Positions 259 to 4,755 of a DNA stretch of 4,755 nucleotides are shown piece by piece. The position numbers and the translations under genes were made by a program. Below the pieces are notes generated by a model. That model did not search any database. It had not been told where the DNA came from and was given only the letters and a program-made list of their open reading frames with translations. Origin of the DNA: a virus (taxonomy: Duplodnaviria; Heunggongvirae; Uroviricota; Caudoviricetes); IMG/VR virus record IMGVR_UViG_2609460218_000013. The stretch is one strand, 5' to 3'. Positions within the stretch are counted from its first letter, which is position 1, and each line of letters starts with the position of its first letter.

Positions 259-474
259 TTACTCTCCCCGTGCAGCCTTACGCTTGTCTTCTTTAATCTT
301 GAAATAAAGGTTTGTCAGATACGTCAGCATGCCAAATACCAGACTACCCAATACACCTATTGCCGCCCACTGTGAGGGCGTGACTTTATCGAGCAACTGT
401 AAAAACCAGTAGCCAGCACTGCCTGCAGAGGTGCTGTAGGCGATGCCCGTTGTTAACTTATCCATGGATTTCAT
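259..474 (-). CDS. Class II holin / pinholin, phage 21 S21 family (EssD/EssQ-like), 71 aa
   Basis: Translation [71 protein letters not shown] matches the S21 pinholin family in length and sequence: two TM segments, a small-residue-rich first TM, a charged C-terminal tail and the Met1-Lys2-Ser3-Met4 dual start. Strong SD GGAGGTGAGG (486..477) sits 7 nt upstream of the ATG at 474..472. The 99-aa track ORF (259..558) is an upstream over-extension with no RBS. Confidence 0.9.
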
Positions 475-564: not shown

Positions 565-596
565 AAAAAGAAAAACGCCAGCAATTATTCTGGCGT
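565..596 (-). terminator. Rho-independent terminator downstream of the AraC-like gene
   Basis: Perfect 7-bp inverted repeat ACGCCAG (575..581) / CTGGCGT (590..596) with an 8-nt loop. On the reverse strand the hairpin is followed by TTTTTCTTTTT (+ strand A-run 565..575). It lies about 68 nt past the AraC-like stop at 665. Confidence 0.55.
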
Positions 597-664
597 AGCT
601 AAAAATATCGTATAATCTTACACTTCAAAAAATAACTTTATAAAATGCCATCACATCATATCTT

Positions 665-1380
665 CTAAGAAAATCTTGATAAATATTGGTGCGGAGGCAC
701 ACCAAAATATCCTCTAAAAACACTTACAAAATATGATGCATTGTCATACCCGCATATTCCCGCCACCTTGCCGACAGTATGGTTACTGTAGATCAATAAT
801 CTTTGCGCCATCATCATTCGTTCTTCAAGAATTAATTTACTAAACGATAATCCTTCGTCTTTTAATTTTCTTTTTAACAAACTCTCGCTCATATATAATC
901 TTGAAGATATATCACAAAGTCTCCATGACGCTGAGATATCCGAGTGAATAATAGCCTTAACTTTACAACCTAAGCTATTAAGACTTCCGAACAAAAAACT
1001 TTGCACTATTTTCTCTGAAGATAAGACAGCAAGACATGCAAGTGATATTTGATTTCTAACTACATCCACGGTTTTGCTATCACAATTCAAGCATGCAACC
1101 AAGTTCTTTAACAATGAAAAATCTTCACATTCTACTATCAAGTATGACGGATAAAACCTTCTTACAGAAAAAGGATGAGAGTGTGTAGTTTTTAAAGAAA
1201 ATCATTAACTGTTTTCTCCTCAACATCTACGATCATTAGATGATCTGTATTTGACGAAAAAAGATCTTTTAAATTGTATTCAATGAGAACAGCATTTCCT
1301 TTTTTAAACAAAATATCTTCTTTACCAATTCGGACACCAAACGAGTTCAACACCAAAATGATAGAACATATGTATGGCAT
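665..1380 (-). pseudogene. AraC/XylS-family transcriptional regulator (AppY/EnvY-like), disrupted by a -1 frameshift
   Basis: Two track ORFs in different frames (1192..1389 and 665..1141) together give an AppY-like protein of about 238 aa. The N-terminal part (MPYICSIILVLNSF...ILFKKGNAVLIEYN...LMIVDVEEKTVNDF) aligns with the AppY N-terminus; the C-terminal part carries the AraC-type HTH (WRLCDISSRLYMSESLLKRKLKDEGLSFSKLILEERMMMAQRLLIYSNHTVGKVAGICGYDNASYFVSVFRGYFGVPPHQY). The frames join if one T is added to the reverse-strand T4 run (+ strand A4 at 1198..1201), changing NDFL-stop into NDFSLKTTHS. Likely start is ATG 1380..1378 (SD AGGTGG 5 nt upstream) rather than the GTG at 1389 used by the track. 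Confidence 0.75.
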
Positions 1381-1880
1381 ATTATCCACCTGATATCATT
1401 GGGGTTACACCAGGTAAGTATAGGTGGAAAATCAATATTCGCCAGTTCAACAATAAGGAAAATCTCATTGCATCACAACTATAAAACCATGTGTTTAACT
1501 CCAGTTATCGCTCGCCACGGGAATATCTGCGGCAGCAGGCCAGTAATGGGTTAAGTGATAACAGGTGTCTGGAAATATAGGGGCAAATCCAACTCACAAA
1601 AAACAAATCATTAAACTAATCTGTTATATTATAATATCTGCGTGCAATAATAATATTATATGCTCTTAATATTCACTTGAAATATCTTCATATAAAAACA
1701 GATTGAATAAAATCTTTTGGGGCTGGTATGTTTACCAACATTAAATTGCATCTCAATGTTTTCTTTAGCGTGAACAGGATTTTTATAAAAACTGACACTA
1801 TGAGCATCATAGCGTAGTTTTTACGATTGTAAATATCCTGCATACAGGAACTCATCACTTTCAGATGATATCGCATACAG

Positions 1881-2840
1881 TTAATTCACCATCAGTCTTA
1901 GAGCCAGTTCTTCCGGATAGGGATCGAAGTAATTCTGTGTAAGCAAGTAATCATTAGGATACTCACCCAGATAATGCTTCAGCAGAGTCAACGGCGCAAG
2001 AAGAGGCAATGTGCCAAAGCGATAGTTAAGTATAACCTCGCTCAACTCTTTACGCTGGCGTGTACTTAAGTAATTACTAAAATACCCCTGTATATGCATC
2101 AGCACATTCGTGTGATTTTTACGTGATGCTGGTTTTCTGAGAATCGCCATCAGATTATCACGATACACCTCAAAGTATGATTCAAGGTCCGCCCACTCGT
2201 GTATTGCAGCCACAAATGGTCCCATATCTTTATAGCCTGCCTGGCTATGCGCCAACAACTGAAGCTTATAACGACTATGAAAAGCTAATAACTCTCTTCT
2301 TGATAATTTCTCCTTGTAAAGGTGATTGAGCTCATGCAAAGCAAAAACTCTTTCAATAAAATTCTCACGAAGCACTGGATCATGTAATCGCCCATCCTCT
2401 TCAACCGGTAGCCAGGAAAACTTTTCCATCAAAGTGCTCGTAAATAGTCCCACTCCATCTTTACGACCTCGATTACCATTTTCATCATAGACACGCACGC
2501 GCTCCATGCCACAGCTGGGAGATTTAGCACAAACCACAAACCCCGATACATCCTTTAATTTGTCCATATAAGAACGACTAAACTCTGTCATTCTCTCTGT
2601 CACATCCTCATTCTGGTCGTGGCTGAAACATATCCGTATATTTCCTTGCTTCGAGCGCACAAGTCGTAGAGCAGGACGCGGAACTGGCAGCCCTATAGCC
2701 ATTTCCGGACATACTGGTCTGAATGTTACCCATTCCACTAATTTGTCCATTAAAAAGTCATCTCTTTTGTGACCACCATCAAAACGAACAGCAGAACCGC
2801 CCAAACAACCGCTGATCCCAATCACAGGTTTTTTTATCAT
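1881..2840 (-). CDS. DUF523-DUF1722 fusion protein (TudS/RudS-like [4Fe-4S] thiouracil/4-thiouridine desulfidase family), 319 aa
   Basis: Intact 319-aa ORF with SD GGAGG (+ strand cctcc, 2843..2847) just upstream. The N-terminal ~150 aa has Cys12, Cys44 and Cys104 (GISGCLGG, PVCPE, VVCAKSPSCG), spaced like the three cluster-ligating cysteines recalled for TudS-type DUF523 desulfidases, plus nearby Glu46 and Ser107/109. The C-terminal ~170 aa is alpha-helical and basic/aromatic-rich, consistent with a YbgA-like DUF1722 domain. Domain calls are by recall, not profile search. Confidence 0.8.
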   Translation of the reverse strand: MIKKPVIGISGCLGGSAVRFDGGHKRDDFLMDKLVEWVTFRPVCPEMAIGLPVPRPALRLVRSKQGNIRICFSHDQNEDVTERMTEFSRSYMDKLKDVSGFVVCAKSPSCGMERVRVYDENGNRGRKDGVGLFTSTLMEKFSWLPVEEDGRLHDPVLRENFIERVFALHELNHLYKEKLSRRELLAFHSRYKLQLLAHSQAGYKDMGPFVAAIHEWADLESYFEVYRDNLMAILRKPASRKNHTNVLMHIQGYFSNYLSTRQRKELSEVILNYRFGTLPLLAPLTLLKHYLGEYPNDYLLTQNYFDPYPEELALRLMVN

Positions 2841-3032
2841 TTCCTCCCCCTTGACTAATTCATTAACACATAAACTTTGTAGTGCACGGACTAAATTGCC
2901 TTTCTGGCTTCATCACTGACAATTTTTCTGTTATTGACTATTCCTAATATAGTAGGAAAGTTCTTTAAGTGATCGGTCGTACTCATCTATCTTTCATACT
3001 TACTCTCAACTATCAAAAGTACAGGATTTATT
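2841..3032. promoter_or_regulatory. Divergent intergenic / promoter region between the desulfidase-like gene (-) and the lipocalin gene (+)
   Basis: 192-bp non-coding spacer between divergent start codons. Contains a direct repeat of TTGACTA (2851..2857 and 2934..2940), a -10-like CATACT (2995..3000) about 30 nt upstream of the lipocalin ATG, and AGGA (3023..3026) as its RBS. No confident -35/-10 pair could be fixed by eye. Confidence 0.3.
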
Positions 3033-3557
3033 ATGAAGTTATGGCCTGTGTTGACTGGCATTGCACTCTCTTTCACTCTTATAGCATGTAAGGCCCCGAC
3101 ACCACCTAAAGGTGTGCAGCCGATTACAAATTTTGACGCCAACCGCTACCTCGGAAAATGGTATGAAATAGCTCGCCTCGAGAACTGGTTCGAACGTGGT
3201 CTGGAACAGGTCAGCGCTACTTATGAAAAACGGAACGACGGAGGGATTCGCGTACTTAACCGTGGATACGATCCAACGAAAAACAAATGGAGCGAGAGCG
3301 AAGGTAAAGCATACTTTACTGGAGATACTAAAACTGCAGCGTTGAAAGTTTCGTTTTTTGGCCCCTTCTATGGTGGCTATAATGTAATCAAACTGGATGA
3401 TGAGTATAAGTATGCTCTTGTCAGTGGTCCGAACAGAGAATACCTATGGATTCTGGCAAGGACCCAAACTATTCCAGATAATGTAAAAGCAGACTATGTG
3501 CGTACCGCTCAAAAGTTGGGATTCAATGTCAATGAACTATTATGGGTTAAACAATAA
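3033..3557 (+). CDS. blc: Outer-membrane lipoprotein of the bacterial lipocalin (Blc) family, 174 aa
   Basis: N-terminal lipoprotein signal with lipobox (MKLWPVLTGIALSFTLIAC, Cys19). Lipocalin motifs are present: FDANRYLGKWYEIAR (GxW), GKAYFTG, LKVSFFGPFYGGYNVI and YLWILAR. Roughly 55-60% identity by eye to E. coli Blc over the full length. Only + strand gene in the window. The symbol denotes the family; this is a prophage-borne copy, not necessarily the chromosomal blc locus. Confidence 0.9.
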   Translation: MKLWPVLTGIALSFTLIACKAPTPPKGVQPITNFDANRYLGKWYEIARLENWFERGLEQVSATYEKRNDGGIRVLNRGYDPTKNKWSESEGKAYFTGDTKTAALKVSFFGPFYGGYNVIKLDDEYKYALVSGPNREYLWILARTQTIPDNVKADYVRTAQKLGFNVNELLWVKQ

Positions 3558-3585
3558 AATCCCCACCCAAAATGATACTTATTAG

Positions 3586-3612
3586 AAAAAAACCAGCCTT
3601 TGGGGAGGCTGG
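3586..3612 (-). terminator. tR'-like rho-independent terminator downstream of Q (reverse-strand orientation)
   Basis: Perfect 7-bp inverted repeat CCAGCCT (3593..3599) / AGGCTGG (3606..3612) with a 6-nt loop. On the reverse strand it reads CCAGCCT-CCCCAA-AGGCTGG followed by TTTTTTT (+ strand A7 at 3586..3592). It lies about 100 nt downstream of the Q stop at 3713, where lambdoid phages place tR'. There is no U-run on the + strand side, so it is unidirectional. Confidence 0.65.
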
Positions 3613-3671
3613 CTAAATCAGGAAACAAGCTGTTATATGATAATAACTACGTTGCGATTCCAACATTTAAA

Positions 3672-3712: not shown

Positions 3713-4089
3713 TTATTTCGAACAATCAGCATCCATCTCCAATCGGAGATCCAACACCATCAGCATGCCCTCCACTACGCCCTCAGCTTTCTGGAGCATC
3801 CTGCCAACCCAACAATCAGATCGCCCATGCTTACGTGCAAGCGCCATAAAAGTCATGCCGCCGACATAATAGTCCACCAATAAATCATGTAAATCGCTGT
3901 TGTTTTTTTCAGGCGAGCCATACATTCACAAATGATCATCGCGTCATCGTCACAGCATTGCGGACGAGATCTTACTTTTGAAGGAATTAATCCCTTAAAA
4001 CCGGCGGCAATGGACGACCAGGTCACATCTTCATGATTATTAGCCGCCCATGCCCCCCAACGCTCAAGAACCATCTGAATATCACGCAT
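3713..4089 (-). pseudogene. Phage antitermination protein Q (short QuuD-type, ERWGAW motif), disrupted by a -1 frameshift in an A7 tract
   Basis: Two overlapping track ORFs (3853..4104 and 3713..3925) in frames offset by one. The N-terminal part ([62 protein letters not shown]) has the LERWGAW signature of the Q antiterminator family. The C-terminal part is [63 protein letters not shown]. They join into about 125 aa if the reverse-strand A7 run (+ strand T7 at 3903..3909) were A8. Likely start is ATG 4089..4087 (GGAG 7 nt upstream), not the TTG at 4104. Confidence 0.7.
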
Positions 4090-4106: not shown

Positions 4107-4755
4107 TTAGGCCAGCACACCAATTGCCAGCGCGCGATCGATAAATCGAAAAATCAGCTCCAGTTGGGAGCCATACTTCTCTTCAAATGCCACGGTATCC
4201 GTATGCAACTCGTCGTGATGCTTTCTGCACAAAGGCAACACAAAGAGATCATGTGCTTTGGTTCCCATTCCGCCCTGCCCGTGACCAATCAGATGATGCG
4301 GATCGTCGGCTGGCATACCGCAGCAAGCACACGGCTGTGTCTTAACCCAGCGTGTGTATTTCTCCTTAACCCAACGGTGACGTTTAGGCAGCTTCATGAA
4401 AGATTCCGGAGACTCTGGATCAACGGTGATGCTTACCACCGTCTTTTCTTGTGATGGGTTTTGTTGCTGGTGGGCGTGAGGCAACGGTGCAAGATTTTTT
4501 GTGCGCTGTTTCAGTATGCTGGTGGCGGTCTGCTCTCCCGGTACGATGTCGCTTTCACGGTACATTGAGCGGATTTTTTCCGCACGCAACCCCAGCGAAC
4601 GACGTAATACCGCTTCCGGTAGCGCGTCCGCCACCTGATTGCGGACCGCCCACCAGGATAATTCAGCCAGAGATAATTCACGCTCCTGCGTACCGCTTAT
4701 TGCGTGACCGATGACGTCAATCATCCATGCTGACAGGTTTTGATGAGCTAGTTGC
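4107..4755 (-). CDS. Prophage protein with C-terminal Cys/His-rich HNH-like motif (DUF968/YdfU-like), 5' partial; N-terminus beyond the right window edge
   Basis: Reverse-strand frame is open from the window edge to TAA at 4109..4107; there is no in-frame stop between 4755 and the first ATG at 4724, so the 205-aa track ORF is probably a fragment. C-terminal motif is [44 protein letters not shown]. Sits directly upstream of Q, where nin-region nucleases sit in lambdoid phages. The overlapping + strand ORFs (4050..4454, 4451..4714) are treated as antisense artefacts. Confidence 0.55.

Follow-up and report, generated by a model that had tools for sequence, protein, structure and literature searches.

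The island at positions 565-3612 of a 4,755-nucleotide stretch of Caudoviricetes DNA (IMG/VR record IMGVR_UViG_2609460218_000013; the whole stretch is referred to as the window) carries three genes, namely blc for a lipocalin lipoprotein, rudS for a predicted tRNA 4-thiouridine (s4U) desulfidase, and a gene for an AraC-family regulator (araC). We conclude with good confidence that this island represents a composite cassette of lysogenic-conversion (moron) cargo, which occupies the slot between the Q antiterminator and holin genes in a family of Escherichia coli lambdoid phages and forms a single mosaic block with the Q and holin alleles. The phage backbone is on the minus strand, running from ydfU (DUF968) via Q and the island to a P21-type class II holin gene, with which the lysis genes begin and the slot ends; within the island blc is on the plus strand, with rudS and araC on the minus strand (Table 1). 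The guanine-plus-cytosine (GC) fraction of the island is 0.385, versus 0.477 and 0.486 in its flanks, and per gene it ranges from 0.54 for ydfU and 0.47 for Q to 0.44 for blc, 0.43 for rudS and 0.33 for araC, the most AT-rich gene. This agrees with the original prediction, made from the letters of the window, which described an AT-rich cargo island in the Q-to-holin moron slot, and the open reading frames (ORFs), domains and orientations agree with those it had given. The cargo is indeed located between Q with its tR' terminator and the holin gene, and has terminators of its own, while other phages whose Q genes are related have nmpC or a lone AraC gene in the slot.

The distribution of the cassette was surveyed by megablast in a set of 5426 complete E. 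coli genomes, with matches to blc in 1135, to rudS in 1136 and to araC in 922 (near alleles only), while at least 880 contained the whole island (at least 80% of it in one place). The order Q-blc-rudS-araC-holin was found on at least two prophage backbones, the Qin-like prophages L001 and L002, where ydfU is upstream, and a lambda-like prophage (L005), where rusA-ylcG is upstream, and also in the cultured phages IdasGreatGrand, 1H12 and Lambda_2E9 (L003, L013 and L004), with the araC gene annotated as encoding a hypothetical protein in the latter two. In L001 and L002, ydfU, a marker of the Qin-like backbone, is annotated, as is essD/essQ at the place equivalent to the holin gene of the window. 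Identities to the alleles of the window or of L001 (a clean copy from strain 1585m1) were 91.5–97.5% for RudS, 96–98% for Blc, 74.5–84% for AraC, 95–98% for Q and 91.5–97% for the holin. The ratio of nonsynonymous to synonymous substitution rates (dN/dS) was 0.06–0.19 for blc, 0.11–0.24 for rudS and 0.22–0.26 for araC, over alleles with a dS of up to 0.58. The three genes travel together and are under purifying selection.

Identity among alleles was not uniform over the cassette, being 97–100% over Q-blc-rudS and 75–78% over araC and the spacer downstream of it, and the junction between rudS and araC was rich in indels, which together indicate separate histories for Q-blc-rudS and for araC. 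No repeat pair flanking the island and no recombinase ORF was found in the window, and an independently mobile island (a transposon or integrative element) was ruled out, as there are neither bracketing repeats nor a recombinase of its own. Since homology continues through Q and the holin gene, the exchange unit is the whole Q-to-holin (Q-to-S) block.

The same slot holds stx in Stx phages, nmpC in DLP12 and cspB/cspF in the Qin prophage of E. coli K-12, which resemble the cassette in their position, their own terminators and the read-through by Q, and differ from it in gene content. DLP12 combines nmpC with a Q that is 86% identical, whereas K-12 Qin has its cold-shock genes next to an unrelated Q of 250 amino acids (aa; ydfT).

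The DUF523-DUF1722 protein is, by its sequence, RudS, a [4Fe-4S] tRNA s4U desulfidase, with PF04463 (TudS) at residues 7–149 and PF08349 at residues 192–309, both with an E-value of about 1e-40. It is 91.5% identical to RudS_vir, the gp66 protein (H3V29_gp66) of Escherichia phage 1H12, encoded by the same gene at the same position of the cassette; both proteins are 319 aa long and share the cluster ligands Cys12, Cys44 and Cys110 and the catalytic residues Glu46, Arg55, Ser107 and Ser109. TudS-DUF1722 fusions take s4U out of tRNA (Jamontas et al., NAR 2024, PMC11417400), and in that study RudS_vir, for which Cys12/44/110 are among the residues listed, was one of six enzymes assayed and lowered tRNA s4U in E. 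coli, while mutation of the equivalent Cys, Glu, Arg and Ser positions abolished the activity of RudS_KT. By its identity to RudS_vir, the window allele is expected to remove s4U as well. That paper handles the RudS_vir gene in isolation, without mention of a blc or AraC neighbour.

The lipocalin scored 312.6 bits with the NCBIfam model of the Blc subfamily (NF007786, cutoff 267), and matched the PDB entry of E. coli Blc (3MBT) with an E-value of 8e-67 and 62.6% identity. Its N-terminus (MKLWPVLTGIALSFTLIAC-K) has the lipobox LIAC with a Lys rather than an Asp at position +2, which by the Lol sorting rule would place it in the outer membrane. The chromosomal Blc of E. coli (PDB 3MBT, 1QWD and 2ACO) is of the same length and fold family and likewise has a lipoprotein signal, but with only 62.6% identity the K-12 protein is further from the window Blc than the rudS-adjacent lipocalins of Enterobacter, Leclercia, Lelliottia and Citrobacter sedlakii, which are 76–80% identical at most loci and 68–70% in two. 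Mathieu et al. (Nat Commun 2020, PMC6969025) listed blc as one of the morons that over half of their infant-gut lambdas contain, and the phages of that study (1H12, Lambda_2E9 and the Lambda_ev series) carry the cassette described here. The prophage Blc allele WP_000780581.1 has been detected in the proteome, increasing two- to three-fold after meropenem exposure (PMC13459554).

The trio had been put forward as an undescribed module, and this view was not upheld: all three proteins match full-length PHROG families, blc is a published moron, the RudS of 1H12 has been tested at the bench, and hundreds of genomes and several phages have annotated copies that are nearly identical. We consider the cassette to be ordinary, already known lysogenic-conversion cargo with a known biochemical core, while our literature search found no paper handling blc, rudS and araC as one unit; a paper on prophages of avian pathogenic E. 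coli (PMC7724020) proved unrelated to the cassette.

Homologues of RudS with 66–75% identity are encoded on the chromosomes of many Enterobacteriaceae, and a scan of species-representative genomes gave 64 RudS loci, consisting of 62 chromosomal loci and two phage-type fragments from a metagenome-assembled genome (MAG). A blc homologue was present within 4 kb of rudS at 41/62 chromosomal loci, and in 36 of these 41 (L041, positions 2021–4960, and 35 similar loci from L031–L083), found in Enterobacter, Leclercia, Lelliottia and relatives, blc is divergent from a merR-transthyretin-like-rudS gene set. The MerR protein of this locus is MlrA-like (241 aa, MlrA_helical and MlrA_C domains), and its neighbour is transthyretin/HIUase-like. 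The phage cassette has the same divergent arrangement, but is without the MerR and transthyretin-like genes, as in a few chromosomal loci such as C. sedlakii L026, where blc is directly divergent from rudS, and Citrobacter sp. L071; the proteins of the chromosomal locus are only 66–80% identical to those of the phage. The phage rudS-blc spacer (2841–3032) shares motifs with the chromosomal blc-merR spacer of Enterobacter and Citrobacter, and on these motifs we regard the two spacers as homologous.

Chromosomal linkage, shared spacer motifs and the split identity profile together point to a host gene pair that was captured without its MerR regulator and placed beside a regulator already resident in the slot. 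The divergent blc-rudS pair would thus derive from an enterobacterial blc/merR-transthyretin-like-rudS locus. The Enterobacter-type locus and Salmonella ORF319 of Salmonella pathogenicity island 2, with its MerR regulator, rank among the closest known systems. Our literature search found no paper tying lipocalins to RudS or DUF1722, and the conserved divergent blc-rudS pair with a MerR-type regulator in Enterobacter-type chromosomes is a modestly new point, which offers a lead to the physiological role of Blc. A different setting was seen in Citrobacter braakii and Klebsiella, where rudS is the last gene of an operon encoding SnoaL, SDR, amine oxidase, DUF1365, CFA synthase, DUF2878 and DUF3833 proteins; we had expected blc in this type of operon, and did not find it, as its 174-aa gene is unrelated.

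Several further RudS loci and tRNA-modification genes were noted. In Salmonella enterica (L008, 6001–6960 and L009, 3704–4663), a 72%-identical RudS is encoded alone, with ttcA, the gene for a tRNA 2-thiocytidine enzyme, on one side and a phage-type DUF1367 gene on the other; uspF and ompN are nearby, and the locus resembles the remnant of a prophage in the region of the Rac-type attachment site. Citrobacter braakii ATCC 51113 has two RudS paralogues (74% and 75% identical) on different contigs (L020 and L022). The Qin-like prophage of E. coli strain 127 (L018, 5638–6075) contains a truncated epoxyqueuosine reductase (queH) pseudogene just upstream of ydfU, and is another case of a tRNA-modification gene as prophage cargo. 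The two phage-type MAG fragments (L072 and L077) are short contigs binned as Candidatus Nanosynbacter, of which the rudS, blc and araC genes are 92–96%, 97% and 85% identical to E. coli phage-type alleles; almost certainly they come from E. coli phages and were wrongly assigned to a Saccharibacteria MAG.

The third gene had been described as encoding an AppY/EnvY-like AraC regulator, and the family is correct, but the intact product (WP_001146314.1, 237 aa) is closer to other members of it. Its full-length identity is 47.7% (237 aa) to ECs_0287 of strain Sakai and 38% to PsrA (ECs_1087, identified as such from PMC13502914), versus 30% to AppY and 31% to EnvY. ECs_0287 is probably PatE (z0321, OI-8), the PatE and Psr clusters not being identifiable from the protein names given by the source. 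Among PDB entries the DNA-binding domain of GadX matched best, and among NCBIfam models YdeO did, at 112 bits against a cutoff of 348; the protein scored under every equivalog cutoff. PatE, PsrA and PsrB of enterohaemorrhagic E. coli O157:H7 are, like the protein studied here, AraC/XylS proteins of about 240 aa encoded on lambdoid prophages, with AppY, YdeO and GadX being more distant. Relatives with 60% and 50% identity, as well as PsrA, are encoded directly downstream of Q, in combination with other Q families and without blc or rudS, and the PatE/PsrA-type regulator appears to be a frequent solitary resident of the Q-to-holin slot; unlike PatE and PsrA, the type found in the window is joined to blc-rudS, and the window copy is a pseudogene. 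The characterised relatives control host acid-resistance and virulence genes, with PatE and PsrB activating gadE/hdeA (reviewed in PMC10877973), and by analogy our best guess is that the intact protein activates acid-resistance genes in the manner of PatE. The cassette is thereby a clear example of how cargo builds up in the Q-S slot, with a stress pair, probably captured, beside a resident PatE-like regulator, and each unit terminated by itself.

Terminators were assessed by comparing folding energy with that of shuffled sequence (z-scores, Table 1). The two terminators said to bracket the island were recovered, at 3591–3614 and 575–596, and a third that had been missed was identified behind rudS (1785–1825). 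All three belong to the late (minus) strand, fold more stably than shuffled sequence and are conserved across four alleles that have diverged, with the hairpin upstream of the holin gene retained although the spacer around it has diverged. From the other side, blc converges on the tR'-type hairpin and stops 34 bases short of it, and the terminator behind rudS overlaps a conserved promoter-like site (TTTACA-16-TATGAT, 1806–1833). Conserved sigma-S-like -10 motifs are present upstream of blc and araC. In a lysogen, blc runs against the direction of late transcription and would have to use its own promoter, while transcripts from the pR' leader, rudS and araC would each stop at their own terminator and leave the lysis genes silent. 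After induction, Q-modified polymerase would pass all three terminators, so that rudS and araC would be transcribed in the sense and blc in the antisense direction together with the late genes.

A direct repeat of 26 bases (85% identical) is present at 1618–1643, in the variable junction upstream of araC, and at 3627–3652, in the Q-tR' spacer, and prompted us to consider a second pR'-like promoter upstream of araC. This was dropped; the araC-side copy is kept in three alleles, but phage 1H12 has lost it by deletion, and hence it is not essential. The repeat may mark the place where two modules of the Q slot recombined. The spacer between araC and rudS was also considered as a location for a hidden small gene or RNA, and both were rejected, as the 62-aa ORF at 1688–1876 had no Pfam or PHROG match, and Rfam gave just one sub-threshold match, to Betaproteobacteria_toxic_sRNA at 3584–3627 on the minus strand (28.6 bits; gathering score, 50), which coincides with the tR' hairpin and most likely reflects a generic resemblance to terminators.

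The location of rudS and araC between tR' and the holin gene, both sense to the late transcript, brings up the alternative that the cassette, or RudS alone, serves the lytic cycle, with RudS made from the late transcript erasing s4U and sustaining translation of late proteins. Besides inducing the prophage, ultraviolet (UV) light cross-links s4U8 in tRNA and thereby leads to uncharged-tRNA signalling and growth delay, and RudS overexpression in E. coli is reported to shorten the growth delay caused by UVA (PMC11417400); the infectious phages 1H12 and IdasGreatGrand moreover keep the genes intact. We nevertheless consider a lytic role unlikely, as rudS has a conserved terminator of its own and shares a divergent promoter region of the chromosomal type with blc, and is intact and under purifying selection in a cryptic prophage with a frameshifted Q; furthermore, erasure of s4U after the UV dose would not be expected to reverse cross-links already formed.

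For the cassette as lysogenic-conversion cargo, the predicted activities suggest a benefit to the host, which may consist of tolerance of near-UV, envelope or acid stress. RudS would turn tRNA s4U back into uridine and so blunt the response to near-UV cross-linking of tRNA, and Blc, of the lipid-binding lipocalin family, would act as an outer-membrane lipoprotein. Tentatively, blc-rudS can be seen as a two-gene damage-response pair, acting on envelope lipids and tRNA s4U and probably directed against near-UV or photo-oxidative stress, which was captured without MerR and spread to about one-fifth of E. coli, making s4U erasure a prophage-borne trait that varies between strains; control by AraC or by Q may then link UV induction to tRNA de-modification.

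Several points weigh against these interpretations. RudS_vir was less active than the other enzymes assayed despite good protein levels, and was studied by overexpression only (PMC11417400), and our search turned up no lysogen expression data for rudS or araC. The functional link among the three genes is drawn from linkage and sequence only, and there is no clear donor species: the best chromosomal RudS (75% identity, Citrobacter braakii/werkmanii) is encoded in a different operon that lacks blc. A scan of the rudS-blc spacer for consensus promoters gave no match, so that the promoters are deduced from conservation and the sigma-S-like -10 motifs, and the assignment of ECs_0287 as PatE follows from its being the only AraC-type gene in prophage Sp1 at thrW in the Sakai annotation.

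Superinfection exclusion and conflict based on tRNA modification were among the functions proposed originally. The tRNA-modification part holds, with RudS as an eraser of s4U, while nothing points towards conflict or defence. Anti-phage activity of the trio, either through a tRNA change that hinders translation by an incoming phage or through remodelling of the outer membrane by Blc, would suit a slot and a class of prophage morons that often hold exclusion genes, such as the sie gene listed beside blc (PMC6969025), and the PHROG families of all three proteins are labelled 'unknown function'. We reject it for now as highly improbable, as no model in PADLOC-DB matched any of the three proteins (E <= 0.01), domain searches of these proteins showed no nuclease, toxin or abortive-infection domain, the characterised relatives of the AraC protein act on host genes for acid resistance and virulence, and the blc-rudS pair is conserved with its MerR regulator in ordinary chromosomal, non-phage settings.

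Table 1. Features of the 4,755-nucleotide window, in order of position; hairpin rows give folding energy and z-score against shuffled sequence.
Feature	Position	Strand	Evidence and remarks
Class II (P21-type) holin gene essD/essQ	259..474	-	Pfam Phage_holin_2_1, E 1e-33
Terminator (hairpin + U-run) after araC, just upstream of holin gene	575..596	-	-11.3 kcal/mol, z -2.7
AraC/XylS-family regulator gene, PatE/PsrA group, pseudogene here	665..1380	-	Pfam HTH_18/HTH_AraC
Stub of one IS2 end + duplicated target	1502..1590	.	89 extra bases relative to L001, in araC-rudS spacer
Terminator (A-tract/hairpin/U-tract), 56 bases after rudS stop	1785..1825	-	-17.1 kcal/mol, z -6.5; in four alleles
rudS, TudS (DUF523) fused to DUF1722, intact, 319 aa	1881..2840	-	Pfam 2-thiour_desulf + DUF1722
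Divergent rudS/blc promoter region (putative promoters)	2841..3032	.	95-100% conserved among phage alleles
blc-type outer-membrane (predicted) lipocalin lipoprotein gene, intact, 174 aa	3033..3557	+	Pfam Lipocalin_2 (PF08212), E 7.5e-43
tR'-type terminator, about 100 bases after Q	3591..3614	-	-14.9 kcal/mol, z -3.9; invariant across four alleles
Q antiterminator gene, QuuD type	3713..4089	-	two Pfam Phage_antitermQ halves (frameshifted)
ydfU (DUF968), truncated by window end	4107..4755	-	Pfam DUF968, E 1e-77

In comparison with the clean copy L001, the window shows damage outside blc and rudS. Q, the intact form of which is 86% identical to QuuD, has a one-base deletion at about position 3903 (T7 versus T8 in L001), and araC has two one-base insertions relative to intact copies, at about 1175 and 1198, so that both genes are frameshifted and only blc and rudS are intact. 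The spacer between araC and rudS further contains the stub of an IS2 insertion sequence (IS), which matches the last 85–87 bases or so of a full IS in strain MB20 and is absent from clean copies. The full IS of the same family in MB20 is inserted 4 bases from the position of the stub, and the two insertions are therefore probably independent; the remainder of the IS2 could be missing from the window because it was deleted internally or because the short-read assembly collapsed here. The indels in Q and araC are found in this window only, both genes being intact in the closest genomes (99.8–99.9% identical), and since two of the three are in homopolymer runs, sequencing error is possible; the differences represent either real decay or errors of assembly or sequencing.

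Such damage, together with the IS elements that break up this region in many strains and the loss of most of the island from E. coli BAP1, a derivative of BL21, would be in line with an island that has no function of its own and is slowly decaying as a hitch-hiker of a successful Q-holin module. We hold this to be improbable, given that dN/dS is well under 1 in all three genes over the range of dS covered, that cultured phages carry the genes in intact form, as do most matches, that terminators and promoter regions are conserved, and that the Blc protein was detected in the proteome (PMC13459554). In the laboratory strain BAP1 (L017, 4001–4864) the phage blc is intact, an IS3 has left 147 bases of rudS, and neither araC nor the lysis genes remain.

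E. coli has been stated to lack RudS (PMC11417400). In K-12 the equivalent slots of DLP12 and Qin contain other cargo and no rudS, and the BAP1 copy is truncated, which fits that remark. The statement is good for K-12, but not for the approximately 21% of complete E. coli genomes that carry an intact-looking rudS on a prophage, and with such a proportion of carriers, natural isolates may vary in the s4U level of their tRNA and in how they respond to near-UV.

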